This document shows positions 2,728 to 30,497 of a stretch of DNA of 38,975 bases, piece after piece. The DNA comes from an uncultured Gammaproteobacteria bacterium (GTDB lineage Bacteria > Patescibacteriota > Patescibacteriia > Patescibacteriales > Patescibacteriaceae), in contig CAYNWZ010000001.1 in NCBI GenBank assembly GCA_964401085.1, forward strand, positions 1 through 38,975. The letters are read 5' to 3'. Position 1 is the stretch's first letter. Each line of letters opens with the position of its first letter. The notes beneath the pieces were generated by a model that was not told the origin of the DNA, ran no database searches, and saw only the letters and a list, made by a program, of their open reading frames with translations. Both the position numbers and the translations under genes were made by a program.

Positions 2728-5700
2728 CTAATTGGCCACGCGCCAAATTTCGTCTAGGCTGGTCTCGCCATTGGCGGCTTTCAATAGGCCGTCGTGAGTC
2801 ATTAATAACGCCCCCTGGCTAATGGCTAATTGTTCTATTTCGGCATCGGTGGTCAGTGGCTGTTGAATCAACTTTTGTAATTCCGGGGTCATCACAATAA
2901 CTTCGTAAATACCAACCCGCCCCTTATAGCCAATACCGCGGCATTCCGGACAACCAACTGGGCCATAGAATTGTGGCTGATCAGGTAATTTTAGCTCAGG
3001 TCTAGTTCTTAATAACTGCCAGAATGGCTCAATCTGCGCCTGCATCTCTGGAGAAACGCTAATGGCTTGCTTACATTTAGGACACAACCGCCGCGCTAAA
3101 CGTTGGCCGATAGAACACTCTAGGGCACTGGCTAGCATAGTTCGTTCCACACCTAGACCGGCAAAACGAGCAATAGCGCCGGCCGCGCTATTGGCATGAA
3201 TCGTGGATAACACCAAATGACCGGTTAAACTAGCTTCAATAGCTGTTTTGGCAGTCTCATCGTCGCGGATTTCTCCAACCATAATAATATTCGGGTTCTG
3301 CCGCATTAGCGATCTCAGGGCAGCGGCAAAAGTATAGCCGCCAGCCGTATCAATCTGGGTCTGCATCAAGCCGTCCAAATGATATTCAATCGGATCTTCA
3401 ATGGTAATTATCTTTATTTCTGGATTATTAAGCTGCTTTAACAATGCGTAAAGAGTTGTTGTTTTACCAGAACCGGTCGGACCAGTGGTAATGATAATGC
3501 CCTTGGTTTTATGAATTGATTTTTCAATAGCCGCCAATACAGCATCACGGATACCTAAATCAGCTAAATCCAAGCTGATAGCCTGATTAGACAATAGTCT
3601 AATAACCACTGTCTCGCCATAACCGCCGGTAATTAAAGAAACGCGGCAATCCATCCGTTCGTCCGGCAGATCCATGCCAAAGCGACCGTCAAAAGTCGGC
3701 TGTTTAACACTCAACGACAAACCGACTAAATTCTTAATCTCACCAATCAGCGGCACATAGTGCTCTGAACCCAAAGTCACAATATCGTGCAAAATACCAT
3801 CCAGACGATAACGAATCTTAACCCCGCCCTCAATCGGGTCAATATGGACATCGGCCGCCTTGCTAACAATGGCGCCAGCCATGACAGCGGCCAACATTTC
3901 GCTGGTTGGCTTATTGGCCAATAATTTCTCAGCGCCAACAATGTCTTGGGTCACCTGCTCGCCAAATTGTAGATCTTCCTTAGAAATTTTAAGACCACGG
4001 CCCAGGGTTTGGGAAACGACAATATCATATAATTCATCAATATAATCGGTCTTGCCAATCACCCGCAGCACTTCATCAAATGAGGTTTGGCCATCTAAAA
4101 CTTTTAAGACACCATCCTGCAGCATCGTTACCATACCGTCTTCAATGGCTTGGCGCATAATCTTAAATGATGGCACACCGTCGGCAATTAAACCTTTCAT
4201 CGCTTCGCTCATGGTAAAAATTTCATAGATACCAATCCGCCCTTTATAGCCAAAACCGGAGCATTCTAAACAGCCATCGCCAGCTTCATAAAGCGTCGGT
4301 AATTCTTTGGGCACATCAATATTAGCTTTCGGCGAAATAACCGCTAAAATCTTGTTAATTTGTTGCTTCTCATCTTCACTGAGCTGATGAACGCGGCGGC
4401 AATGCGGACACAATTTGCGCACCAGGCGTTGACCCATAATAGCGTTAATCGCTGGAACTAATTGGTATGGCTGAACCCCCAAATCAACCAGCCGCGGCAA
4501 CACCCCGGCCGCGTCGTTGGTGTGTAAAGTGGAAAAGACTAAATGACCGGTTAAACTGGCCTGAACGGCAATCTCGGCAGTATCTAAATCACGGACCTCA
4601 CCAATCATAACGATATTCGGATCTTGCCGCAAAATTGATTTTAGGCCGTTGGCAAAAGTATAACCGCTTTTTTCATCAACCTGGCTCTGATTAATTCCCT
4701 GAAGCTCATATTCGATTGGATCTTCCAGGGTAATAATCTTAACTCCCGGTTGATTGAGCTTATTCAAAACGGCATAAAGCGTTGTTGTTTTACCAGACCC
4801 CGTTGGCCCAGTGGTTAAAACTAAGCCATTAGGTTTAGCCATTTCGTTTTCCAGGGTCTGCCGAACTTCTGGCCGCATCCCTAAGCTGTCTAGCGGTAAA
4901 ACCGCTGATTTCGGCCGTAATAAGCGCATAACCACACTCTCACCATAGGCGGTTGGCAAAAACGAACTGCGCACTGCCACTTTTTCATCAGGCAAAAAGA
5001 TGTCAAAACGACCATCTTGTGGCTTATTCTCAACGTTTAATTTAACCCGAGCAACAACCTTGAGTCGGGACAATACCTTTTTCCATTGCTGACGAGGAAT
5101 GGTAGCTACCGGCTGCAATAAGCCATCAACCCGCAAGCGAACAATAACCGCCGTTTCTTCGGCTTCAATATGAATATCGCTACTTTCAGCCCGCAAAGCC
5201 GCGGCAATCACTAATGTCAGTATTTGACTGATGTTGGCTTCTTTCAACTTATTGTTCAACAGATTCATCTCACTGAGTTCGGCTTGATAACGAGCCAACT
5301 CTTCCGGGTTAATCTCTACCCCCTCTAAGCGGTTAATCTTCGGTAAAGTATCATAAATCTTGTGAGCATATTCCAAACTGCGCTGAGAAATCAAATACAG
5401 CTTGGCCTTAAGGTGGTGATTGGTCGACAATTCAGCTATCTTGGCCGTTAAAATCTCACTAGGTTGAGTCGTTCCGATACGAATATTATTCTTTTCATAA
5501 TAAAAGCAAACAGCCGCTAAGGCAACAGCATCGTCTTTACTCAACAAACTAATCGCTTCCGGGCTAATTGGAAAATCTAATAAATTGATGTAAGCCAAGC
5601 CTGAAGACTGCGCTTGGGCCGCCACCTGATCTTCAATCGCCTGATAGCGTAAATCGGATTGGCGCTTAGTCAGCTGGGCCGCTGGCGAATCTTTGCTTGC

Positions 5701-5754
5701 CAACACCTTATCATTAAGCAGGTCTTCAATGGAAAGATTGTTATCTTCAACCAT
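2728..5754 (-). CDS. Tandem-duplicated PilB/GspE-family secretion ATPase (two complete ATPase modules in one polypeptide)
   Basis: The 1008-aa ORF repeats every family motif once per module. Walker A: GPTGSGKTTTLYA at aa 316 and aa 758. Asp box: ITLEDPIEY and ITIEDPIEY. Walker B: IVMIGEVRD and IIMVGEIRD. His box: TGHLVFSTLHTND and TGHLVLSTIHANS. Tetracysteine: CPHC..CLEC and CPKC..CPEC. The first ~135 aa look like a T2SSE_N-type N-terminal domain. Confidence 0.9.
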   Translation of the reverse strand: MVEDNNLSIEDLLNDKVLASKDSPAAQLTKRQSDLRYQAIEDQVAAQAQSSGLAYINLLDFPISPEAISLLSKDDAVALAAVCFYYEKNNIRIGTTQPSEILTAKIAELSTNHHLKAKLYLISQRSLEYAHKIYDTLPKINRLEGVEINPEELARYQAELSEMNLLNNKLKEANISQILTLVIAAALRAESSDIHIEAEETAVIVRLRVDGLLQPVATIPRQQWKKVLSRLKVVARVKLNVENKPQDGRFDIFLPDEKVAVRSSFLPTAYGESVVMRLLRPKSAVLPLDSLGMRPEVRQTLENEMAKPNGLVLTTGPTGSGKTTTLYAVLNKLNQPGVKIITLEDPIEYELQGINQSQVDEKSGYTFANGLKSILRQDPNIVMIGEVRDLDTAEIAVQASLTGHLVFSTLHTNDAAGVLPRLVDLGVQPYQLVPAINAIMGQRLVRKLCPHCRRVHQLSEDEKQQINKILAVISPKANIDVPKELPTLYEAGDGCLECSGFGYKGRIGIYEIFTMSEAMKGLIADGVPSFKIMRQAIEDGMVTMLQDGVLKVLDGQTSFDEVLRVIGKTDYIDELYDIVVSQTLGRGLKISKEDLQFGEQVTQDIVGAEKLLANKPTSEMLAAVMAGAIVSKAADVHIDPIEGGVKIRYRLDGILHDIVTLGSEHYVPLIGEIKNLVGLSLSVKQPTFDGRFGMDLPDERMDCRVSLITGGYGETVVIRLLSNQAISLDLADLGIRDAVLAAIEKSIHKTKGIIITTGPTGSGKTTTLYALLKQLNNPEIKIITIEDPIEYHLDGLMQTQIDTAGGYTFAAALRSLMRQNPNIIMVGEIRDDETAKTAIEASLTGHLVLSTIHANSAAGAIARFAGLGVERTMLASALECSIGQRLARRLCPKCKQAISVSPEMQAQIEPFWQLLRTRPELKLPDQPQFYGPVGCPECRGIGYKGRVGIYEVIVMTPELQKLIQQPLTTDAEIEQLAISQGALLMTHDGLLKAANGETSLDEIWRVAN

Positions 5755-5758
5755 AAAT

Positions 5759-7471
5759 TTAATTTATTTGACTGCGGCGTTCTTTAACATAGTTGGTCCA
5801 ATCTTCGGCCATATCGACAAAAAACTTGAATGGCGTTTCAATAATAAAATCTAATAAGAATACAAAAACATTGACTTTATCAAATTTCTCACTCAGCCAC
5901 TTGCCAACTGCCATCACTGGTAAAGTAAAAACATCAAACAAAATCAACCACAAACTCTCTTTGTCTTCAGTAATTCTTAGCTCATTAGTCACCCGCTTGA
6001 TACGAATTATGAAAAAACTGACAAAAACTAAGAAGAACAAGAAAATAATAATACTGATGAGGGTAAAATGCAGAGCGTGCAGCGCCCAGATGATAGCGCT
6101 AAAGGTTATCAAAAAAGTAAAAGAGTAGATAACATTAAAGATCTTCGTCAATATGTTGGCCTTTTTCTGAGATAATCGAACGGCAATCGGTGTTTGACGA
6201 CGATTTTCTTCAAAAGACAGCTCATTAACCAAACCGATTATCTTATCCGTGTTAGATTCGTTGGGTAACTTGGTAATCAACACTGAGAAGAATAAAAGGG
6301 CCGCCGGAAAAGCGGCGTTAATTAGTAGAGCTCCCCAGCTAACCGGCGCGCCGAATATCTTATTGGCTGGAATCTCTAAGGCGATTACCAAAACCGTTTT
6401 GGTTAAAAAGATATAAATAATACTACGAACAGCCGCCCGCCACAATAAACTTTTGGCCCTGGTATAATTTTTCTCACAAACTTTTTTAATCTGCCGCGGA
6501 AAAGCTTTTGGGTCAGTTTTAATACTAGTATAAATACCGACCGGATCGGCTCGTAACACATCTAACAGCACCGAGGTAGAAACGGCGTAGCGCCTAGTTA
6601 GCTTATCTAATGGTCCAGCTAGTGGGTGGTGGAGCTGTTGGTTAATGGCCTGACGAATTTCCTGAATTTTCTTGGCAACAGCCGGCCAGCGGCTGGCCTC
6701 CATTTTTTGCCAATCGGCTAAATAATATTTAAACAAAATAAAGGCCAGCATGTCATTGTCCAGCTTGGCAAAATTACGATTAACCGAAAGATAAATTTGA
6801 ATTGGCAAATCGGCCGATAATTCTGGATGGTTGGCTAGTTCAATATTATCTAATAAATACTGGTACAAATTATTAATGGCTTGATTTAGGGGTTGATCAT
6901 TGCCCAGTCGACTCTCGATTTCGCTGGCAGCCACGGCCAGTAGCCAGGCCACCAACTCATTGCGTTGCGACAACTCTTCTTTAAACTTAACCAAATCCTT
7001 TTTTATTAAGCTGGCCGATCCGGACAATTGACCCAACTGAGCAACAGCAATATCTTTAATAACCAAATACTTCTTAATAATAGCCGCTACCTCATCAATC
7101 AAACTGGTCGGCAAATGATTGTTCGGCAAATAGCCGCCGCGAATCAATTCAGCCAATAGATGCTGGCTGATTTTTTCATGATCATTGTCGGTTATCGTGC
7201 CCTCAATCAATATTTGGCGCCGCAAAATCCGCTCAATCGCCTCTTTGCGCAGCAAATATTCTTCTTTATAGTCAACGGCGTTGCGAATCTTTTCATAAAA
7301 AAAAGACATCCGCGAAATCACGCTGGATACCTTGATTCTTGGCTGATCTCCTTTGGCTCCGCCTGAGCTATGTTGAGCGTGATAAATAGCCTGCAACAAT
7401 TTCTTGGTGCTATCATTAACCGTTAAGACAGCGGCTGGATGTTCGTGAATTTTTGGATTTAACATAAACAA
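5759..7471 (-). CDS. Uncharacterised 570-aa membrane protein (about 340-aa soluble helical N-terminus, about 5-6 C-terminal TM helices)
   Basis: Long ORF ending 4 nt before the ATPase start. Hydrophobic segments cluster from about aa 345 to 540. I recognise no family motif, and it is not PilC/GspF-like. Confidence 0.6.
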   Translation of the reverse strand: MFMLNPKIHEHPAAVLTVNDSTKKLLQAIYHAQHSSGGAKGDQPRIKVSSVISRMSFFYEKIRNAVDYKEEYLLRKEAIERILRRQILIEGTITDNDHEKISQHLLAELIRGGYLPNNHLPTSLIDEVAAIIKKYLVIKDIAVAQLGQLSGSASLIKKDLVKFKEELSQRNELVAWLLAVAASEIESRLGNDQPLNQAINNLYQYLLDNIELANHPELSADLPIQIYLSVNRNFAKLDNDMLAFILFKYYLADWQKMEASRWPAVAKKIQEIRQAINQQLHHPLAGPLDKLTRRYAVSTSVLLDVLRADPVGIYTSIKTDPKAFPRQIKKVCEKNYTRAKSLLWRAAVRSIIYIFLTKTVLVIALEIPANKIFGAPVSWGALLINAAFPAALLFFSVLITKLPNESNTDKIIGLVNELSFEENRRQTPIAVRLSQKKANILTKIFNVIYSFTFLITFSAIIWALHALHFTLISIIIFLFFLVFVSFFIIRIKRVTNELRITEDKESLWLILFDVFTLPVMAVGKWLSEKFDKVNVFVFLLDFIIETPFKFFVDMAEDWTNYVKERRSQIN

Positions 7472-19102: not shown

Positions 19103-22006
19103 CTATTTCAATCCCTTAATAATTAGTCCGAGCGGGGGGCTGGTTTTTGTTTGCCCCGACCACAATTCAGCTTCGGCAACAATAGAATAATTGCCATTAC
19201 CCTCAGCTGGCTGTTTAAAATTAATGCTAGCTAAACCGTCGCTATCGGGCGAAACAGCGTCAATCAACTGCCGCTGGCCGCCCTTAATGCTGTAATAAAC
19301 CTTAATCTTGGCCGCCAGCTTAGCTTGGTTAACTCTTAATTGCAAATTTATTGGAAAGTCGGCCGCCCGAAAAGTCAGGCCATCGGCTGGGGATTGCCAG
19401 GCTAGCGATAACGACTGACTATTAGCCTGATTATTGGCTACATTTAAATCAAAGGTCAGTTCGTGCTTAGAACAATTTTTAATATCGTCACAGGCCTCAA
19501 CTGCTAATTTGTGCTGACCATTGGGCAAGAAGTCCAGGTTTAGGTTATCGTCGAACGGTTCACTGGAGTTAGTTTTTAGCAATAAACCATTAATATAGAA
19601 ATTAACCTCTTTGACTCCGCGCGGAGCTGTAGCCTTTAACTTAACTGATAAATTATTGCTGGTTATCCGCTGCCCGGCCGTTGGGCTAATAATGGTTAAG
19701 TCGGGCAGGTTCTCGGTGGTATGTAAATTATCTTTTTCGGTCGGCGGCTCAGCCATATTAAATTTTTGCTTAGTGGCCCAATTCTTAACTCCGGCTTCCC
19801 AGAGCCCAAACTGTGGATCAGCGGCAGCGTTGGTTGGCGCTGCCCCTCGCGGGTCATCACGATTAACATAATACAAGATAGAGTGGCCCTGCCAATAGCG
19901 GTCCTCTCTAATCATGTCCGGTGGCGTAGAGCTGGTGGCCAACAAATTAGAGTTTTTATCAATCTTGACTACGGTGGTGGTTGGAATAACACCATCCAAA
20001 ACGGCCTTACCGGTAGTTTCTGTTTCCGGCTTCTTAAAACTCTCGGCCGGTCCAGACAAAGCGCGGTTCATATAGCCATTCCAAATTGGTGCCGCCACCA
20101 CACTACCATCAGCACCGCGACTCATTGATTTATTGTCGTTGTTACCAACCCAGACACCAGTAATAATTGATGGCGTATAGCCGATGGTCCAGGCGTCCTT
20201 ATAGTCGTTAGTAGTGCCAGTCTTGGCGGCAGCACTACGACTATTAAGCGTCAAATAATTCTTAGCACCGAAAACATAGGCCCGCTCATTGTTGTCACTC
20301 AAAATATCGTTAATTTCTCTAGCGATTTGCGGTTCTAGAACTTTCTGTTGTTCAACCTTGGTTTCTTCCAGAACCTTACCGCGATCATCCTCAATCTTGA
20401 GGATATAGCGGGGGCGAACCATTTCGCCATCACGAGCAAAAGCGCTATAAGCAGCCACGTGCTCCAATAACTTAACTTCACCGCCGCCTAACACCAGGGA
20501 CAGACCAAAACGACTCTTATCAGTTAGCGTGGTGTAGCCAAGATTCTTGGCGACAGCCAAGACGTCGTCTAGTCCGGCCAGATACAGCGTTTTAACTGCC
20601 GGAATATTCAGCGAACCAGCCAAAGCCTTTTTCATGGTGACTGGGCCATGTTCTTGCCCATTATAATTGCTGGGCTGATAAGCCTTATCTGGATCAAGAG
20701 AAAAATTAGTGGCAACATCAAATAAGACCGTCCGCGGCGTATACCCTTTCATAAAAGCAGCAGCATAAACAATCGGCTTGAATGATGATCCAGGTTGCCG
20801 TGGACGCAAGACCAGGTTAACTTGGCCGTCAATATCATCATTAAAATAGTCCCTGGAGCCAACCATGGCCAAAATATCACCGGTCTTGGCGTCTATGGAT
20901 AATAAAGCGGCATTGCTGGCATTAAAATTCTTGGCATTTTTTTCGGCCTGAGCAGTTAGAACCTCTTCAGCAATTTTTTGTTTTTCCGTGTCTAGAGTAG
21001 AATAAATTTTTAATCCGCCCTGTTCGATCATCTTTTCACCGTATTTCTCCGCCAGTTGATCTTTTATAGCCATGACAAAATGGGGGGCAATCATGTTGCC
21101 GTTTTCTTGCAATGGTTTAAATTGAACCTCAAAATTCTTGGCAACAATCGCCTCATCTTCACTGATATAGCCCTGCTTAACCATCACATCTAAAACATAG
21201 TGCTGGCGAGCAATTAACATGTCTTTGCCGGTGCCATAGGGTGAATAACGGCTAGGTGCCTGCGGCAAAGCTGCCAAGATGGCGGCTTCGGCTAAGTTAA
21301 CCTGATTAACCCCTTTGCCAAAATAGCGCTGACTGGCAGCTTCAACACCATAGGCGTTGGAACCATAGGGAATTTCATTAAGATACATCTGTAAGATCTG
21401 GTCCTTAGAGAAGCGTTTTTCAATACGATAAGCCAATATCAACTCCTTGGCTTTGCGAGTGTAGGTCTTTTCTGAGGTTAATAGGGCGTTCTTAACAAAT
21501 TGTTGGGTTAAAGTTGAGCCGCCAGCATGCCGACCTAATAAAACATTAGTCACGACCGTTCTAAACATCGCCCACAAGCTAAAACCGCCATGTTTATAAA
21601 AATCTTTATCTTCAATGGAGATGGTTGCTTGTTTAACGTGGTCAGGAATTTGCTCTAAATTGACCAACGTCCTCTTTTGTTCACCGTGAATCTCATAAAG
21701 AATGGTTTCACCCTTGCGGTCATAGATCTTGGTGCTCTGAGCGACTTGGCGATCTAATAATTTGTTAGGATCCGGCAAGCCGCGAGATAACCACAACAAA
21801 GTAACACCGCCAATGATAGTCATTACCAAAACCAGGGCGCCAAAAAATTTAATAATCTTCGGCCAATCTAATTGTTGTCTTAATTGTGCCGACCGCTGGC
21901 GACTAATTTTTTTAGCCCTAACAATTAAGGCTGAGCGATTGACGGTTTGATTAATAAAACGCTTGGCTGGCGTCGGTTTACGAACCACAAGTTTAGGAAT
22001 AGGCAT
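19103..22006 (-). CDS. Class A penicillin-binding protein (GT51 transglycosylase plus transpeptidase) with a long C-terminal extension
   Basis: 967 aa with an N-terminal TM helix. GT51 motifs are EDKDFYKHGG, GGSTLTQQ and RKAKE. Transpeptidase motifs are SSFKP, SLN and KTGTT. About 270 extra C-terminal residues show a beta-rich, Ig-like repeat character. Confidence 0.9.
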   Translation of the reverse strand: MPIPKLVVRKPTPAKRFINQTVNRSALIVRAKKISRQRSAQLRQQLDWPKIIKFFGALVLVMTIIGGVTLLWLSRGLPDPNKLLDRQVAQSTKIYDRKGETILYEIHGEQKRTLVNLEQIPDHVKQATISIEDKDFYKHGGFSLWAMFRTVVTNVLLGRHAGGSTLTQQFVKNALLTSEKTYTRKAKELILAYRIEKRFSKDQILQMYLNEIPYGSNAYGVEAASQRYFGKGVNQVNLAEAAILAALPQAPSRYSPYGTGKDMLIARQHYVLDVMVKQGYISEDEAIVAKNFEVQFKPLQENGNMIAPHFVMAIKDQLAEKYGEKMIEQGGLKIYSTLDTEKQKIAEEVLTAQAEKNAKNFNASNAALLSIDAKTGDILAMVGSRDYFNDDIDGQVNLVLRPRQPGSSFKPIVYAAAFMKGYTPRTVLFDVATNFSLDPDKAYQPSNYNGQEHGPVTMKKALAGSLNIPAVKTLYLAGLDDVLAVAKNLGYTTLTDKSRFGLSLVLGGGEVKLLEHVAAYSAFARDGEMVRPRYILKIEDDRGKVLEETKVEQQKVLEPQIAREINDILSDNNERAYVFGAKNYLTLNSRSAAAKTGTTNDYKDAWTIGYTPSIITGVWVGNNDNKSMSRGADGSVVAAPIWNGYMNRALSGPAESFKKPETETTGKAVLDGVIPTTTVVKIDKNSNLLATSSTPPDMIREDRYWQGHSILYYVNRDDPRGAAPTNAAADPQFGLWEAGVKNWATKQKFNMAEPPTEKDNLHTTENLPDLTIISPTAGQRITSNNLSVKLKATAPRGVKEVNFYINGLLLKTNSSEPFDDNLNLDFLPNGQHKLAVEACDDIKNCSKHELTFDLNVANNQANSQSLSLAWQSPADGLTFRAADFPINLQLRVNQAKLAAKIKVYYSIKGGQRQLIDAVSPDSDGLASINFKQPAEGNGNYSIVAEAELWSGQTKTSPPLGLIIKGLK

Positions 22007-22100: not shown

Positions 22101-22109
22101 TGTTATAAT
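22101..22109 (+). promoter_or_regulatory. Extended -10 promoter element (TGtTATAAT) upstream of the first pilin gene
   Basis: TG-n-TATAAT at 22101-22109, about 50 nt before the ATG at 22161, with a weak -35 (TTGTTG) 17 nt upstream. Confidence 0.45.
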
Positions 22110-22160
22110 GGCGGCAGAATAAATTTTAATTCTTAGCCCTTGTTGGTTAAAACAAATTTT

Positions 22161-22553
22161 ATGAATCAAATTAAAAAGTTTCTGTTCGGATTGTTGGCAC
22201 TCCAATGCCTCGCTCTAAGTCCAGTCGCCATTGCTCCAGTTAGAGCAGATGTTGATTTATGGGGTGGCAACAATATCGCCAACAACGCTTTCAACAGTAT
22301 CGGTTTCAGCAGAAAAGACCCGCGAGAAATTGTGGCCAATATTATTAAGATCTTGCTAGGCTTTCTCGGGACCATTGCTGTTGTTTTGATTATCTATGCC
22401 GGCTTTTTGTGGATGACGGCGGCTGGCAAGCCCGACAACACCAAAAAAGCCAAAGACATAATGTCGGCGGCAGTGACTGGCTTGGTGATTATTTTAATAT
22501 CTTACGGTATTACGGTATTTGTTACCAATGCCTTAAGTAACGCTATTCAATAA
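22161..22553 (+). CDS. TrbC/VirB2-like small pilin-family membrane protein, paralog 1
   Basis: Signal peptide (..LSPVAIAPVRA|D), a variable region, then two hydrophobic helices flanking the loop FLWMTAAGKPDNTKKAKD. The ATG at 22161 is preferred to the TTG start in the track. Confidence 0.6.
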   Translation: MNQIKKFLFGLLALQCLALSPVAIAPVRADVDLWGGNNIANNAFNSIGFSRKDPREIVANIIKILLGFLGTIAVVLIIYAGFLWMTAAGKPDNTKKAKDIMSAAVTGLVIILISYGITVFVTNALSNAIQ

Positions 22554-22587
22554 AAATTAATTAACTATTAATAAGGTTAAGAAACTT

Positions 22588-22977
22588 ATGAAAAAACTTT
22601 TTGTCGGCTTAATGTCTTTAGTCTGGGCCGCCAGCTTACTGTCTTTAGCTCCAGCCGCTAGCCAGGCTCAAAGCATGAACGCCAATGACTTATGGGGAAA
22701 TGGCACGGTTAGCACTTATCAGAATCAGGGCTTTTCCACCACTGATCCTCGTCAAACAGTTGCCAAGATCATCAAAGTGGCTCTTGGTTTTTTGGGATCA
22801 ATCGCCGTTATCTTAATCGTCCTAGCTGGCTTCAAATGGATGACCGCGGCTGGCAACGAAGATAAAATTGCTGAATCCAAGAAATTAATGGCCGCCGCCT
22901 TTGTCGGTTTGGTTATTATCTTAACTGCCTTTGCTCTAACCAATTTCGTTATTAATTCGGTTATCTCCACTATCTAG
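22588..22977 (+). CDS. TrbC/VirB2-like pilin-family protein, paralog 2
   Basis: Signal peptide (..APAASQA|Q). The same DLWG..F(S)..DPR...A.IIK..LGFLG.IAV..I..AGF.WMTAAG core as paralog 1. Confidence 0.6.
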   Translation: MKKLFVGLMSLVWAASLLSLAPAASQAQSMNANDLWGNGTVSTYQNQGFSTTDPRQTVAKIIKVALGFLGSIAVILIVLAGFKWMTAAGNEDKIAESKKLMAAAFVGLVIILTAFALTNFVINSVISTI

Positions 22978-22986
22978 CGATAGCTT

Positions 22987-23050
22987 AATTCGCCAAATTA
23001 TCTTGGCGAATTTTGTCTCAACCCAAATATTTTGGATTGAGACAAAATTT
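22987..23050 (+). terminator. Two consecutive hairpins (attenuator/terminator-like) splitting the pilin array into 2+4 genes
   Basis: Hairpin A is aattcgccaa/ttggcgaatt (10 bp, loop attatc) followed by TTTT. Hairpin B is ttttgtctcaa/ttgagacaaaa (11 bp) followed by TTTCTT. Confidence 0.5.
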
Positions 23051-23064
23051 CTTAAACAAACTCC

Positions 23065-23424
23065 ATGTCTAGACAGTTGACAATTATTCAGCGGGCAACC
23101 TATCTGCTTGGTTTTTATTTTCTACCAATAATTGCTCGAGCCGACAACTTTGGGCTAGATCAGGCTGCAGGCAGCGCTGGACTAAAAAGTAGCAGCACCC
23201 TGGCAGAAAAATCAGGCCAAATTATTGGTTCTCTCTTAAGTCTAGTTGGCGTCATCTTTTTGGTCTTAATGATTTATGGTGGAATCACTTGGATGACGGC
23301 TAGCGGCAATGATAAGCAGGTAGATAAAGCTAAAAATATTATTACTTATGCCATCATAGGCTTGGTGATAATCCTATCAGCCTATACTATTACCGCCTTT
23401 TTGGGCGGGACATTGGCCCGATAA
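23065..23424 (+). CDS. TrbC/VirB2-like pilin-family protein, paralog 3
   Basis: N-terminal hydrophobic leader, then LSLVGVIFLVLMIYGGITWMTASGNDKQVDKAKNII and a second helix. Confidence 0.6.
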   Translation: MSRQLTIIQRATYLLGFYFLPIIARADNFGLDQAAGSAGLKSSSTLAEKSGQIIGSLLSLVGVIFLVLMIYGGITWMTASGNDKQVDKAKNIITYAIIGLVIILSAYTITAFLGGTLAR

Positions 23425-23425
23425 T

Positions 23426-23836
23426 ATGTTTTGGCAAAGCAAAACAAAACTATTAATTACTTCCGTAGCCCTACTGTTAACGCCAGGTCTTAGAGTTAAG
23501 GCGCAATCTAATAGCGCCACCGAGGCCACCAATGCTTTTGGTTATTTTTTTGGCGGTGCCCAGAAAACAGCTAACCAGATGGGGTATGTGGCCAGCACCA
23601 CCGATGGCACCAGCCTGCTGCTTCTCCAGGCCGCGGCCATAGTTAGTTTTATTTTAAGCCTAGTTGGCGTCATCTTTTTGGTCTTAATGATTTATGGTGG
23701 AATCACTTGGATGACGGCTAGCGGTAATGATAAGCAGGTGGAAAAAGCCAAGGGGACTATCAGTCGCGCGGCCATTGGCTTAATTATAGTTATTCTGGCC
23801 TATGCTATTACTTTTTTTGTTGTTAACCGAATATAA
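23426..23836 (+). CDS. TrbC/VirB2-like pilin-family protein, paralog 4
   Basis: Signal peptide (..LRVKA|Q). The core LSLVGVIFLVLMIYGGITWMTASGNDKQVEKAK shares 65 identical consecutive nucleotides with paralog 3. Confidence 0.6.
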   Translation: MFWQSKTKLLITSVALLLTPGLRVKAQSNSATEATNAFGYFFGGAQKTANQMGYVASTTDGTSLLLLQAAAIVSFILSLVGVIFLVLMIYGGITWMTASGNDKQVEKAKGTISRAAIGLIIVILAYAITFFVVNRI

Positions 23837-23838
23837 TT

Positions 23839-24147
23839 ATGCCAGCTAATCTACAAAACGCCTTTTCCGGAGACAGTTTGAACCAAACCGCAGTAGCTGC
23901 CGGCTATAATCCAGCTCAAAATAACGCCCTAACAACTATTGGTAATTTTATAACCATTATTCTTGGGTTGATTGGTGTTATTTTTTTAGCTCTAATAATT
24001 TATGGCGGTTTTTTGTGGATGACGGCTAGCGGCAATGATAAGCAGGTAGATAAAGCCAAAGCCATTATTGGTCAAGCAACCGTCGGTCTTGTAATTATAA
24101 TCCTGGCCTATTCTATAACCTTTTTTATTATTAAAATTCTTCCATAA
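23839..24147 (+). CDS. TrbC/VirB2-like pilin-family protein, paralog 5 (no obvious signal peptide)
   Basis: 102 aa starting with a polar stretch (MPANLQNAFSGDSLNQ..), followed directly by the two-helix core FLWMTASGNDKQVDKAK. Confidence 0.55.
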   Translation: MPANLQNAFSGDSLNQTAVAAGYNPAQNNALTTIGNFITIILGLIGVIFLALIIYGGFLWMTASGNDKQVDKAKAIIGQATVGLVIIILAYSITFFIIKILP

Positions 24148-24151
24148 CCCT

Positions 24152-24559
24152 ATGTCAAAAACAAATATCTTGGCAACAAGACTGATTTCTTTAATAATAA
24201 TGGCTGTCGGCTTGATAAATATTCCCCTGGCGCAAGCCGTGCCAGCAGAAACATTGACCAACCTTAGAACGGTGGCATCACCGAGTTATCAAGCCCCAAC
24301 CGATGAAAACACTTTGTTTAACAACATATCGTCTATAATAAAGCTGGTCCTGGAATTACTGGGTTTCATTTTTGTTATTTTAATGATTTATGCTGGCATT
24401 CTGTGGATGACGGCCGGTGGCAATGAAAAACAAGTAGAAAAAGCCAAAAACATTATCAGCCGAGCGGCCATTGGTTTGATCATTGTGGTCTCAGCTTACG
24501 CGATAACTTATTTTATCTTTACTAATTTACCGGGCGGAGGCGGAGCTGGACCAGCTTAA
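24152..24559 (+). CDS. TrbC/VirB2-like pilin-family protein, paralog 6 (Gly-rich C-tail)
   Basis: Signal peptide (..IPLAQA|V), core ILWMTAGGNEKQVEKAKNII, and C-terminal LPGGGGAGPA. Confidence 0.6.
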   Translation: MSKTNILATRLISLIIMAVGLINIPLAQAVPAETLTNLRTVASPSYQAPTDENTLFNNISSIIKLVLELLGFIFVILMIYAGILWMTAGGNEKQVEKAKNIISRAAIGLIIVVSAYAITYFIFTNLPGGGGAGPA

Positions 24560-24584
24560 GAAAAAACCCGTTCAAGGAACGGGT
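24560..24584 (-). terminator. Intrinsic terminator of the minus-strand lipoprotein gene
   Basis: Stem acccgttc/gaacgggt. On the minus strand it is followed by a T-run of 6 (the complement of aaaaaa at 24561-24566). Confidence 0.6.
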
Positions 24585-24602
24585 CTCGTGTCAAAAGTGG
24601 AT

Positions 24603-24641
24603 ACAATCGTCATTGCTTGTTAACAATGACGATTGTTTTTT
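24603..24641 (+). terminator. Intrinsic terminator of the pilin operon, embedded in the 3' end of the convergent lipoprotein CDS
   Basis: A 13-bp perfect stem acaatcgtcattg/caatgacgattgt with an 8-nt loop, then TTTTTT on the plus strand. Confidence 0.65.
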
Positions 24642-25122
24642 GTCCGGCTGACACTGACCGGACAATTGTGGCCCGCTGGTTGTCGCCCCAGGCGACGGAG
24701 AATGACAACCAGCCAACCGGAACCCTGATTGCTGAAGAGCTGGCAGAGCCAGGGTTTAAAGTAACGCCGGCGTACGGTCCGTCCAGAACCGTAATCCGAT
24801 AATCGCTAGCGTTAACCAGGCTGGCTAGGGTTGAGCCGCCGCCGCCAACTTGGGCGGCCAGGTCGAGCCATTGTTGGCTTTCAGCTGGCGTAGCGGCCCG
24901 TTGAGCCTTAACCAGATAATAGGCCTGGGTCTCGACCAGGCTCTGTTGAGATCGGGTCTCCAACCAGTCGGTGGCCGGCATGGAACCACTCACGCTGTCG
25001 GCCACTAATTGCTGACTAGCGTTGAGCCGGACATCCACCCGAGCAGTATTACGGTTGGCGCTACAGCCAACCAACAAAATCAAACCGACAAGCAGGGCGA
25101 TAACGACAAGATGCTTCTTCAT
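24610..25122 (-). CDS. Predicted lipoprotein, unknown family, GC-rich outlier
   Basis: 170 aa with a signal peptide plus lipobox (LILLVG|C) and AGGAGG 6 nt upstream of the ATG. Sampled 60-nt lines inside the gene give 38/60 and 41/60 G+C, against 18/60 in a nearby pilin line. Confidence 0.7.
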   Translation of the reverse strand: MKKHLVVIALLVGLILLVGCSANRNTARVDVRLNASQQLVADSVSGSMPATDWLETRSQQSLVETQAYYLVKAQRAATPAESQQWLDLAAQVGGGGSTLASLVNASDYRITVLDGPYAGVTLNPGSASSSAIRVPVGWLSFSVAWGDNQRATIVRSVSAGQKTIVIVNKQ

Positions 25123-27668: not shown

Positions 27669-28805
27669 TTATTTGCGCAGCGGCACAATAATATATTGAT
27701 AATTATCGTCTTTAGGGACGCTGATTTGACAGGCGGCGACATCGTCAATTAATTTAATTATCACCTGGCCAGTCGATAAAATATTTAAGCACTCCAAAAG
27801 ATAGCGATAATTCAAGCGCACGCTATTATTTTGGCCGTCAATTTTGGCCGTCAATTCAGCTTGCTGACTGCCGGTTTGTCCCGCCACCGCCTCAATAATA
27901 ATTTTTTGCTCAAGACTATTAACAGTTATATCAATAGCATTGGTCGTATTAGCACTAAAAATAGAGGCCATTTTAATGGCTCGCGATAATTCGCCGCGAT
28001 CAACAATGGCTTCCGTCTTAAAATTAACTGGCAGAACCTGCTCATAGTCAGGGTAATGACCCTCGATTAATCTAGAAACGATAGTTGTTCCTTGATAGAC
28101 AAACATTGCTTGATTGTCAGATAGGAATAATTTTAATTGATCGGCATCTCCAGATAATTCATCGGTCGAAGAATTAATAATCCGTGAAATTTCCTGCATT
28201 GTCTTAAATGGTATAATCACCTTTAACCCATCAGCGCCAACTTGTCCGGACTCTAAAGAGAAATCTAACTCGGTCTTGGCTAAACGAAAACTATCGGTTG
28301 CTACTAAATTCATTGCCTTACCCTTAATATCAAATAAGACGCCGGTTAATTCTAGGCGATTATCACCAGGATTAATTGCAAACAATATTTGGCTAAGCGC
28401 ATTTTTTAGACTGGTAACTGACAAATTAAAGCCAATTTTTTTATCAACCTGAGGAATAACTGGAAAATCTTGTGCTTCCTGCCCCTTGATGACCGTATTA
28501 TATTGTTGGCAATTAATTTTTAATTCCTTTTTATCTAAAGATATATCTATTTTTTCGTTTGGCAACAGGGCAATATAGTCGCTTAATATTTTAGCATCAA
28601 CAGTGATCTCACCATCTTTATCGGCTTTACCTCTAATTTGTTTTGTGATGCCTATCTCCAAATTGGTTGCTGATAAATTGATTAAACCATCTTTAATACT
28701 AATCAAAACATTATTAAGTATCGGCATGCCGGCATTCTTAGTGGCGATATGTCCAACGGTGGTTAATCCTTGGTGGAGATTTTTTTGTAGGATGGTTAGT
28801 TTCAT
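27669..28805 (-). CDS. dnaN: DNA polymerase III beta sliding clamp
   Basis: 378 aa. The N-terminus MKLTILQKNLHQGL..V..I....A..PILNNVLI and the three-domain length fit DnaN, and it lies immediately downstream of dnaA. Confidence 0.9.
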   Translation of the reverse strand: MKLTILQKNLHQGLTTVGHIATKNAGMPILNNVLISIKDGLINLSATNLEIGITKQIRGKADKDGEITVDAKILSDYIALLPNEKIDISLDKKELKINCQQYNTVIKGQEAQDFPVIPQVDKKIGFNLSVTSLKNALSQILFAINPGDNRLELTGVLFDIKGKAMNLVATDSFRLAKTELDFSLESGQVGADGLKVIIPFKTMQEISRIINSSTDELSGDADQLKLFLSDNQAMFVYQGTTIVSRLIEGHYPDYEQVLPVNFKTEAIVDRGELSRAIKMASIFSANTTNAIDITVNSLEQKIIIEAVAGQTGSQQAELTAKIDGQNNSVRLNYRYLLECLNILSTGQVIIKLIDDVAACQISVPKDDNYQYIIVPLRK

Positions 28806-29012
28806 ATTAATTTATAATATATAAATAAAGAGATAATAATATAGTTTGGGTAAAAGTTGATAACCTGTTTTTGTTTTAAACTTTGGCTAAAAAATAAACT
28901 GGCTGTTTGGGGATAAAAATTTAATAAAAAGTTAATGGTTGGTGGATAAAAAAAATATTTATTGCTTGGCTGTGGATTAAGCATTGTTTTCCACAACAAT
29001 TTCTTTGTCATG
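28806..29012. other. Candidate oriC: AT-rich unwinding tract plus a cluster of DnaA boxes in the dnaA-dnaN spacer
   Basis: The AT-rich stretch at 28806-28850 is attaatttataatatataaataaagagataataatatag. The 8/9 boxes are TGGGGATAA (28908), GGTGGATAA (28941), TGTGGATTA (28971) and, in the opposite orientation, TTTTCCACA (28987). There is also a 7/9 box at 28856. Confidence 0.55.
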
Positions 29013-30401
29013 TTAATAAGTTGAAGTAATCGCTTGGGTAATTTGGTCTATGTCTTGTTTTAATTGGTTGTTGGTTTTTAGGTCGGCCTCAATTTTGGTG
29101 CAAGCATACATAGCGGTGGTGTGATCGCGTCCGCCTAGTTCTTGGCCGATGGCCGGGAATGAGGCATTAACTTTGGTACGTAGTAAATACATAGCAATTT
29201 GGCGCGGACCAACTAACTCTTTTTTGCGACTTTGGCCAGTTAATTCAGCGACGTTAATATTATAAAAATTGGCGACCGCTTCTAATATTTTTTGTGGAGT
29301 GGATAGATTGCTAGTCTGAATGGAGGTAAAAAATTCTTTTAGTACTTGTTGAGCAACGGCGATGTCGGGAGAGCAATTATGAAATTGGCAGAAACCCATA
29401 ATCCGATTGAGAGCACCCTCTAGTTCCCGGACATTATTGTTGATGTTAGTGGCAATATATTGAATTATGGATTGATCTAGGGAAAATTGTTTTTGTTGAC
29501 ATTTGGTATTTAAGATAGCCATTCTGGTTTCTAGGTCCGGTTGACTGATGTCGGCCACCATACCCCACTCAAAACGGGTAATTAACCGAGCTTCTACTGC
29601 TTTCATGCTGCGTGGCGGTCGGTCCGAAGTAATAACTATTTGTTTATTGGCACGATGCAGTTGATCAAAGGTATGAAAAAACTCTTGCTGGGTGCCGTCT
29701 TTGCCGGCCATGAACTGGATATCATCGATTAGCAGCAGATCAACGTTACGGTATAGGCTTTTAAAAGTGTTGCCGCGGCCATGATAAACAGCTTCAACAT
29801 AATCATTGGTAAATTTTTCTGAGGTCACATAGAGGACTTTTTTGCCAGACTTAATTAATTCATGGCCAATTGCTTGTAGGAGGTGGGTTTTGCCCAGGCC
29901 GACTCCGCCATAAATAAAAAGTGGATTGTAGGTTTCGCCGGGTTGACGCACCGCTGCCCAGCAGGCAGCATGAGCCAATTCATTATGCTTGCCAATCACA
30001 AAGGTTTCAAAAGTATAACGCGGATTTAGTCCAGCCGACAAACAGGCTTGCTGATCAGCGGTTGGTTTGATGTCGACTATGGGTTCTGTTGGTTGTTTAT
30101 CTTCAGTGACTAAAAAATTGTTAGTTGGCGTGGCGTGTTGCGGTTTAAGTTTTATAATATACTTAATTTCTGTTGGTTTCTTGCCGGTAATCTTATTGAA
30201 TATATGGACAATTTCTTGACTGAATTTAGTTTCAAACCAGGCCCGGGTAAAGCCATTGGGAACGCCGATGGTTAAAACATCTTCTTCATAGCTAGAGATA
30301 AAGGAGTTTTTAAACCAAGTGATGAAATTGGCTTTAGAGATAGTTAATTCGGCTTCGCCTAAAATAGCTTGCCAGATTTGTTCTAAGGAGGGGTGTTCCA
30401 T
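29013..30401 (-). CDS. dnaA: Chromosomal replication initiator protein DnaA
   Basis: 462 aa with Walker A GGVGLGKTHLL, Walker B LLLIDDIQF, sensor motifs, and the C-terminal DNA-binding helix-turn-helix (..GGRDHTTAMYA..). Confidence 0.95.
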   Translation of the reverse strand: MEHPSLEQIWQAILGEAELTISKANFITWFKNSFISSYEEDVLTIGVPNGFTRAWFETKFSQEIVHIFNKITGKKPTEIKYIIKLKPQHATPTNNFLVTEDKQPTEPIVDIKPTADQQACLSAGLNPRYTFETFVIGKHNELAHAACWAAVRQPGETYNPLFIYGGVGLGKTHLLQAIGHELIKSGKKVLYVTSEKFTNDYVEAVYHGRGNTFKSLYRNVDLLLIDDIQFMAGKDGTQQEFFHTFDQLHRANKQIVITSDRPPRSMKAVEARLITRFEWGMVADISQPDLETRMAILNTKCQQKQFSLDQSIIQYIATNINNNVRELEGALNRIMGFCQFHNCSPDIAVAQQVLKEFFTSIQTSNLSTPQKILEAVANFYNINVAELTGQSRKKELVGPRQIAMYLLRTKVNASFPAIGQELGGRDHTTAMYACTKIEADLKTNNQLKQDIDQITQAITSTY

Positions 30402-30488: not shown

Positions 30489-30497
30489 TGTGGACAA
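30489..30497. promoter_or_regulatory. DnaA box (TGTGGACAA, 8/9) in the dnaA/rpmH divergent control region
   Basis: A single near-consensus box 88 nt upstream of the dnaA start, plausibly autoregulatory. Confidence 0.4.

Follow-up and report, generated by a model that had tools for sequence, protein, structure and literature searches.

Positions 22161–24559 (+ strand) of the 38,975-base contig analysed here, the whole of which we call the window, carry six co-oriented open reading frames (ORFs) of 130, 129, 119, 136, 102, and 135 amino acids (aa), all of which are members of the pilin family PF18895 (T4SS_pilin). With a probability of about 0.6, we read them as a VirB2-like pilin cluster whose products would be maintained, co-working subunits, used by a type IV secretion system (T4SS) encoded elsewhere for a surface structure of host contact or exchange.

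The initial annotation had reported six consecutive small ORFs of 102–136 aa, and their coordinates were reproduced. Paralog 1 (22161–22553, + strand, 130 aa, 31.3 bits against PF18895) showed, by hydropathy and cleavage-site reading, a leader MNQIKK…VRA/D (the slash marks the cleavage site), two transmembrane (TM) helices, and the loop WMTAAGKPDNTKKAK; an alternative TTG start upstream at 22140 would extend it to 137 aa. The leader of paralog 2 (22588–22977, + strand, 129 aa, 33.4 bits) was …ASQA/QS. Paralog 3 (23065–23424, + strand, 119 aa, 44.4 bits) had a weak leader, …ARA/D, and the loop WMTASGNDKQVDKAK. Paralog 4 (23426–23836, + strand, 136 aa, 37.2 bits) started 1 nt past the paralog 3 stop and also had a weak leader, …VKA/Q. 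Paralog 5 (23839–24147, + strand, 102 aa, 30.2 bits) was leaderless; a polar N-tail of 30 residues, one of them charged, led into the hairpin, with no N-terminal hydrophobic segment. Paralog 6 (24152–24559, + strand, 135 aa, 40.8 bits) had the leader …AQA/V and a Gly-rich C-tail. The leaders of paralogs 1, 2, and 6 were strongly hydrophobic and those of paralogs 3 and 4 only weakly so.

Alignment of the six paralogs gave 18 invariant columns, including the W-M-T-A-x-G that closes the first hydrophobic helix and the Lys of the K-A-K loop. W-M-T-A-(A/S/G)-G was present in all six; paralogs 3–6 read WMTA(S/G)GN(D/E)KQV(D/E)KAK and paralogs 1 and 2 were looser, so the core motif and Lys-rich loop described earlier were recovered as such. 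Two hydrophobic segments lay within the C-terminal ~70 residues of every paralog. The leader–helix–loop–helix layout that had been predicted for all six stood for the two helices in 6/6 and for the leader in 5/6, paralog 5 having none. Mean identity among the window paralogs was 20% in the N-terminal parts and 46% in the cores, which agrees with the earlier picture of divergent N-terminal regions against a conserved membrane core. Identity to paralog 1 across the array was 31–49%, and paralogs 3 and 4 had a common 169-nt core with 80% DNA identity. In the AlphaFold2 model of paralog 6, residues 52–125 formed a helix–loop–helix (helices 52–86 and 92–125) with a confidence score (pLDDT) of ~90, the whole-protein mean being 73.9. 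The two-helix topology asked for in the initial annotation was seen by hydropathy in 6/6 and in this modelled hairpin of paralog 6.

Family membership was clear. All six paralogs scored 30.2–44.4 bits against PF18895, over its gathering score of 26.6 bits, and nearly all homologs carried a precomputed PF18895 label. The best NCBIfam match of every paralog was NF045849, the pilin-like conjugal transfer family of Mbov_0395 from the Mycoplasma integrative and conjugative element (ICE), with E values from 4e-10 to 1.5e-6 (4.3e-10 for paralog 2) and 64–78 of the 80 profile positions matched. As these E values were significant and the scores (27.8–39.1 bits) stayed under the equivalog cut-off of 40, the window proteins are related to that family, not equivalent to it. 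Two other assignments were considered. A type IV pilus pilin would need a class III leader (G end, hydrophobic helix, Glu 5), which was found in 0/6 paralogs; they had Ala-x-Ala sites or were leaderless. A link to PrgF of pCF10 gave only weak phmmer matches, confined to pilin ORFs (E 1e-5 to 1e-2), an hhalign probability of 0.4%, and no PF18895 match for PrgF itself; no useful PrgF profile was obtained, because the plasmid PrgF homologs are confined to Enterococcus.

The relatives in the genome collection were Falkowbacteria, Magasanikbacteria, Uhrbacteria, and other Patescibacteria, and the source of the window is, judged by sequence, a Falkowbacteria-like patescibacterium of class ABY1. The Falkowbacteria and Magasanikbacteria assemblies inspected in Table S1 of Quinonero-Coronel et al. 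2025 (PMC12102498, of which we draw on selected passages and table rows throughout) were assigned to this class. For a survey of arrays, ORFs were called in 80 fetched loci (1.26 Mb) and searched with a hidden Markov model of the six window proteins. At least four small pilin genes occurred in 66 of the 80 loci, and six was the modal array size (39 arrays). Three loci, L004, L005, and L007, shared the window's six-gene array and its PBP1A…lipoprotein-NusA-HolA-DnaN-DnaA context, with paralog 1 identities of 96, 95, and 68%, respectively.

For 32 complete six-gene arrays, we recorded the array position of each protein's best match in every other genome. The resulting matrix was strongly diagonal: the best match fell on the same position in 835/992 cases for position 1, 873/992 for position 6, and 361–635 (of 992) for positions 2–5. 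When L036 was compared with the array positions, same-position scores were 92–159 bits and other-position scores 58–79 bits. On clustering, classes 1, 2, and 6 were near-pure (F1 0.86–0.96), and classes 3–5 were pure but split. Array positions are orthologous classes across 28 more distant genomes; therefore, the paralogs are old and individually conserved.

The ratios of nonsynonymous to synonymous substitution rates (dN/dS) against L004 and L005 were 0.02–0.20 for each of the six genes, with 0.00–0.15 for the cores and 0.00–0.36 for the N-terminal parts, all of these being rough because dS is high. Neighbouring housekeeping genes gave 0.01–0.11, comparable to the pilin genes. Purifying selection acts on each of the six window genes. 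The N-terminal parts diverge faster than the cores between orthologs too, so that the comparison of array size and N-terminal variability recommended at the outset returned a modal size of six, faster N-terminal divergence, and purifying selection together. No sign of diversifying selection was seen. Positional orthology and low dN/dS therefore favour several distinct subunits, each of them needed, and the result favours a fixed set of distinct co-working subunits over antigenic-type diversification. The initial annotation had preferred diversification of a surface-exposed subunit, which the same ratios and the orthology of positions across species disfavour; its second suggestion, that several subunits make up one structure, fits better.

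The T4SS machinery is absent beside the array. No VirB4, VirB6, VirD4, or TrbL domain was found in window ORFs of at least 100 aa, the contig extending ~15–22 kb around the array, and there was no adjoining virB3/virB4 mating-pair-formation operon. Proteins at the contig edges did not lead further outwards, one of them having no database record and another lying on a contig of 3.3 kb. All eight VirB2/TrbC genes that we fetched sit between a VirB1-like gene and virB3. No VirB4, VirD4, or VirB6 was recognisable in the available flanks of the 66 related array loci, which covered up to 10 kb per locus and less where a contig ends. These flanks were tested by phmmer with PrgJ, PcfC, and PrgH of pCF10, and by Pfam scans of large-ORF clusters and further selected large ORFs; the scanned ORFs included nearly all with a Walker A motif and left out one 508-aa Walker A ORF and most singleton ORFs. 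As the machinery is also missing beside the arrays of relatives, its absence is a lineage property and not an edge effect of the contig. The claim that no T4SS machinery lies nearby was therefore sustained for the whole 39-kb contig and for the flanks of relatives, and these flanks also speak against an ordinary locus edge with a T4SS just outside the window.

Putative transcription signals accompany the array. The intergenic gaps among paralogs 3–6 were merely 1–4 nt, and the spacer between paralogs 2 and 3 measured 87 nt and contained two adjacent strong hairpins (22988–23047, + strand; RNA fold −28.4 kcal/mol, z −7.3), which 0/200 shuffles matched in folding. These hairpins are probably a terminator or attenuator that divides the array into paralogs 1–2 and paralogs 3–6. 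Two more hairpins followed paralog 6 (24566–24636, + strand; −33.9 kcal/mol, z −5.6). The second of them (24603–24636) had a 13-bp stem followed by a T run, a terminator-like site, and probably ends transcription of the array. From the spacer hairpins, the 3' hairpin with its T run, and the 1–4 nt gaps, the array is therefore probably organised as two transcription units. A putative extended −10 promoter element, TGtTATAAT (22101–22109, + strand), was read by eye ~50 nt upstream of paralog 1. A sigma-70 consensus scan of the sequence detected promoter-like sites no more numerous than in shuffled sequence and did not report this element, because the accompanying −35 element is weak or wrongly spaced. 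Within pilin genes, matches to the 'DnaA box' with one mismatch (TCATCCACA) were seen on the - strand at 22408–22416, 24014–24022, and 24402–24410. They simply mirror the conserved L-W-M-T codons, read as the reverse complement, and are not regulatory sites.

The signal peptide of paralog 5 was missing in the window, L004, and L005 and was kept in the L007 ortholog; paralog 5 starts at about the beginning of the mature part of that ortholog. The dN/dS of paralog 5 was 0.04–0.08, and the gene is therefore maintained. Its layout implies that membrane insertion of the 30-residue, nearly uncharged N-tail would be leader-independent.

Related hairpins also occur in larger proteins. An exhaustive profile search of cluster representatives returned 62,332 of them at E ≤ 0.001 and 21,461 at E ≤ 1e-10. 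Two to eight pilin domains in one polypeptide were present in 59 of the 150 best representatives. Such 'polypilins' (six hairpins in P0124, eight in P0131, four in P0121) had a single N-terminal leader and no internal leaders, and the fusions suggest that hairpins act side by side. A universal six-class scheme was tried on the fusions and rejected: their domains (4–8) did not map to the ABY1 classes, the top and second-best class scores being nearly equal. Therefore, the six classes are lineage-specific. In 13 fetched loci, we found a pair of large proteins (600–1000 aa and 1500–3300 aa) with one N-terminal PF18895 domain each; in the examples scanned, the Ig-like domains Big_5, TIG, and fn3 came after the PF18895 hairpin (residues ~35–125). 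One such pair is L066:7214-9877 and L066:9911-15622, with similar pairs in 12 other loci (e.g., L013, L024, L053, and L076). The flanks of L066, the sole giant-pair locus with scanned neighbours, showed no T4SS genes. The giant pairs look like pilin-anchored adhesins, and Ig-like domains behind an N-terminal hairpin are consistent with an outward-facing C-terminus.

In the mechanism that we propose, each paralog would enter the cytoplasmic membrane as a helical hairpin. Five paralogs would be exported with a leader of signal-peptidase-I type (Sec), and paralog 5 would probably be inserted by N-tail translocation of the YidC type. The variable N-terminal segment and the C-terminus would lie outside and the W-M-T-A-x-G-N…K-A-K loop in the cytoplasm, since the hydropathy, the leaders, and the net-positive loop fit an N-out, C-out hairpin. 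The array would be encoded on its own, in two probable transcription units, not far (a few kb) from the origin and apart from a T4SS locus of VirB4 type. On the Saccharibacteria model, the distant T4SS would most likely draw the paralogs from the membrane pool into a pilus-like or channel-lining surface structure, whose outward N-terminal segments would touch the host cell on which epibiotic bacteria depend.

Several results weigh against this reading. None of the six paralogs reached the PF04956 (TrbC/VirB2) threshold of 27.9 bits, the sole matches being paralog 1 (14.8 bits) and paralog 3 (16.8 bits), and the NCBIfam VirB2 model PRK13857 gave 13.6–17.1 bits against a cut-off of 103. A profile of eight aligned VirB2/TrbC sequences (the Agrobacterium VirB2 sequence confirmed against plasmid records) was compared with a 53-sequence profile of the window family by hhalign. 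The two could be aligned over 58 columns, in register as expected and with G-x-x-W-M closing helix 1 on either side, at a probability of 11% and an E value of 0.0027. Foldseek of the paralog 6 model against the PDB gave a best E value of 3.5, with the T-pilus subunit 8exh in 17th place (E 6.1); this search was uninformative because helical hairpins are too simple to discriminate. The 53-sequence profile had no sequence match to any solved pilin in the PDB, its sole matches being spurious ones to designed 'Pizza' repeats through a short W-x-T-x-x-G-N-like motif. The resemblance to VirB2 would accordingly be called one of layout, homology having been established by neither the profile nor the fold tests. 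Of the original TrbC/VirB2 family call, the T4SS pilin family (PF18895) and the hairpin layout therefore stood and the PF04956 assignment did not. To our knowledge, no patescibacterium has been observed to form a T4SS-dependent pilus, and so the label 'pilin' reflects similarity only. Linkage of the array to T4SS genes does not occur in its lineage, so that genomic context lends the T4SS link no support. VirB4 in the source organism is assumed from relatives, because its genome is represented by a 39-kb contig only; all five Falkowbacteria rows inspected in Table S1 of PMC12102498 were scored VirB4-positive.

The six-class scheme does not fully hold for the window's own clade. Both paralog 1 (top score) and paralog 2 resembled class 1, paralog 3 (top score) and more weakly paralog 4 resembled class 2, paralog 6 was the class 6 ortholog, and paralog 5 was ambiguous. 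On these matches, the array of this clade has been remodelled, and paralog 2 is probably a lineage-specific duplicate of paralog 1, because both resemble class 1.

Other explanations have to be weighed against the maintained pilin set. That the six genes are ORFs arising by chance, or gene mis-calls, in an AT-rich stretch of repeats has a negligible probability: all six matched PF18895 independently above its gathering score, so the array is not chance, and besides, identical protein sequences recur on other metagenome contigs and ortholog dN/dS is well under 1. A repertoire of alternative versions of one exposed subunit, for different hosts or for evasion of recognition, is distinctly unlikely. 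The faster divergence of the N-terminal parts, both within the window and between orthologs, is what it would predict, and signs of local duplication or gene conversion (two paralogs of class 1, the 80% core identity of paralogs 3 and 4) point the same way; a passage of PMC12102498 puts this reading forward. However, the N-terminal dN/dS never came near 1, and each position is orthologous across the 28 more distant genomes. The genes are moreover co-oriented and tightly packed, hence probably co-expressed and not switched, and no silent cassettes or invertible elements turned up in a direct-repeat search and a reading of the region, neither of which was a dedicated search.

The PF18895 hairpin may instead serve Patescibacteria as a general unit of membrane anchoring or oligomerisation, and the array would be a T4SS-independent envelope module; this is the main rival, which we consider unlikely. 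The six paralogs would then form a hetero-oligomer at the membrane or surface, and giant adhesins would be anchored by related hairpins; neither a pilus nor VirB4 would be required. The machinery-free available flanks of 66/66 array loci agree with this, as do the 13 loci with giant pairs of PF18895 and Ig-like domains, including the T4SS-free flanks of L066. Extraction of fused chains of 2–8 hairpins as individual pilus subunits would be awkward, the similarity to real VirB2 is weak, and PF18895 is a very large family. In conjugative pilins, both ends of the chain are exposed on the outside of the pilus; if this is correct, fusions and adhesin domains would be compatible with a filament. Against the envelope module stand the significant similarity to the pilin-like family of Mycoplasma conjugative elements (NF045849), the Saccharibacteria array that sits inside an essential T4SS cluster (PMC10633639), and the pilin genes near virB4 in 1,135 assemblies, according to the part of PMC12102498 used here. 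It is rather improbable that the PF18895 hairpin of ABY1 is not a T4SS pilus subunit but a building block of a T4SS-independent heteromeric envelope structure that also anchors giant adhesins. Were this true, the name 'T4SS pilin' would be wrong for one of the largest patescibacterial protein families.

The array lies between PBP1A (19103–22006, - strand) on the left and a 170-aa lipobox protein (24610–25122, - strand, lipobox LLVGC) on the right, as first described. The lipoprotein gene has a slightly raised GC content and no family assignment; it adjoins the array in the window's own clade only, with 55–81% identity in L004, L005, and L007. Housekeeping genes of the window encode a pseudouridine synthase, a double T2SSE ATPase (type IV pilus), DprA, TopA, PBP1A, NusA, HolA, DnaN, DnaA, RnpA, YidC, IF-2, RbfA, and a partial DNA polymerase I, which is the ORF leaving the contig at the right end. 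The dnaN and dnaA genes occupy 27669–30401. Four near-consensus DnaA-box-like sites were clustered at 28908–28995 in the dnaN-dnaA spacer, with one more upstream of dnaA (30489–30497), and the minimum of the cumulative GC skew lay near 28 kb. The box cluster and the coinciding skew minimum mark a probable oriC. The array therefore ends ~4.3 kb from the probable origin, which confirms its reported location near oriC; the pilin genes, NusA, and HolA are on the + strand to the left of the origin and so point towards it. The protein encoded at 2728–5754 (- strand; 1008 aa) contains two secretion-ATPase (T2SSE) domains and resembles a fused motor of type IV pili, a system distinct from that of the T4SS-type pilins. 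Beside it is a 570-aa ORF (5759–7471, - strand) with no Pfam match.

In more distant Falkowbacteria, including the closed genome CP066698.1, the six-gene array has a different, conserved context, in the order SMC, ComM, a solute-binding protein, a solo seventh pilin, a helix-turn-helix protein, a methyltransferase, a GT2 glycosyltransferase, a ~530-aa polytopic membrane protein, the array, and a phosphoenolpyruvate-utilising enzyme. The solo seventh pilin (L036:5076-5513, with equivalents in ~25 loci) lies ~5 kb upstream of the array, directly after the solute-binding protein gene, and has no counterpart in the window. The ~530-aa membrane protein (L036:8285-9871, - strand) is encoded divergently upstream of the array and has at least nine TM-like segments and no Pfam match. 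The GT2 glycosyltransferase (L036:7522-8268, - strand) is paired with it in this place in mainstream Falkowbacteria, and homologs of the pair occur in 30 loci. A link of these two proteins to envelope or pilin glycosylation is pure speculation. A conserved partner gene of the array was sought among these neighbours and rejected: the ~530-aa protein and GT2 have no window homolog, and the window lipoprotein is confined to its clade.

A large part of bacterial diversity belongs to the Patescibacteria, which seem to live attached to other cells. Few of their systems have been shown to be essential for this attached lifestyle, the T4SS and its pilin array among them. The present results narrow the question of what these two do in three respects: the paralogs behave as a conserved, co-maintained set and not as a variation repertoire; one whole class encodes pilins apart from the secretion machinery; and related hairpins occur tandem-fused or at the N-terminus of giant surface proteins. 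The initial annotation had regarded the arrangement itself as unusual, and this was not borne out. For Patescibacteria, the literature already describes this kind of feature, its grouping in arrays, its common location apart from virB4, and T4SS genes close to the origin (PMC12102498, PMC10633639, PMC12857230). Our survey adds modestly to this, with six as the modal array size and machinery-free flanks, positional orthology across 28 genomes, and purifying selection.

The passages of PMC12102498 on which we draw give the wider frame. PF18895 was among the profiles used there; VirB4 was found in 2,417/3,035 assemblies, and VirB2-like pilins in 1,948 VirB4-positive assemblies, away from virB4 in ~40%. 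The same passages count 441 arrays of 2–11 pilin genes in 383 Patescibacteria assemblies, most abundant in Microgenomatia and Saccharimonadia; they place T4SS genes often close to dnaA and ABY1 virB4 loci near comF, recG, and radA, and nest patescibacterial VirB4 in the T4SS class that includes Tenericutes. With an array taken as at least two tandem pilin-like genes in a Patescibacteria genome, the window, with six, holds one. Those arrays share with ours the tandem order, the PF18895/VirB2-like membership, and the frequent location off virB4; mean within-array identity is ~25% there, against 31–49% to paralog 1 here. A near-universal, position-conserved, virB4-unlinked six-gene array of Falkowbacteria-like ABY1 is not mentioned in the passages covered. 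In a structure-clustering preprint, PF18895 was the most abundant domain of its freshwater-specific clusters.

The closest known array is that of Southlakia epibionticum ML1, a member of Saccharimonadia, whereas the window organism belongs to class ABY1. By description, both arrays consist of six tandem, sequence-divergent, small pilin-like genes of a patescibacterium near the origin; for the S. epibionticum array, detection was reportedly by profiles of the same type as here (PF18895 and VirB2). The S. epibionticum array is essential and lies inside a T4SS cluster (PMC10633639, PMC12857230), which transposon sequencing showed to be essential for epibiotic growth (Wang et al. 2023, PMC10633639). 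The window array is not embedded in such a cluster; it stands alone between PBP1A and NusA and is known from its genes only. A FEMS review (PMC12857230) describes the six VirB2-like pilins as conserved in structure and divergent in sequence, and speculates about a pilus-like conduit. The shared number of six genes may be coincidental.

Canonical VirB2/TrbC pilins (PF04956; T-pilus 8exh) share with the window proteins the leader, the ~70-residue hairpin, the positive loop, and the G-x-x-W-M that closes helix 1. They differ in that they belong to diderms with one major pilin, whereas the window has several paralogs in a monoderm with no adjacent VirB1, VirB3, or VirB4. Mbov_0395 and MMCAP2_0565 of the Mycoplasma ICE (NF045849) are connected to the window proteins by the profile match, and both hosts lack an outer membrane; according to the family description they are single genes in a mobile element, whereas the window genes form a chromosomal array. 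Anaplasma phagocytophilum VirB2 and Bartonella TrwL resemble the window array in being tandem pilin paralogs with divergent exposed parts in a host-dependent organism. As cited in the relevant passage of PMC12102498, those arrays accompany T4SS genes and serve host-range or antigenic variation; the window genes, in contrast, have no T4SS linkage, and each of them is conserved across species and kept by purifying selection.

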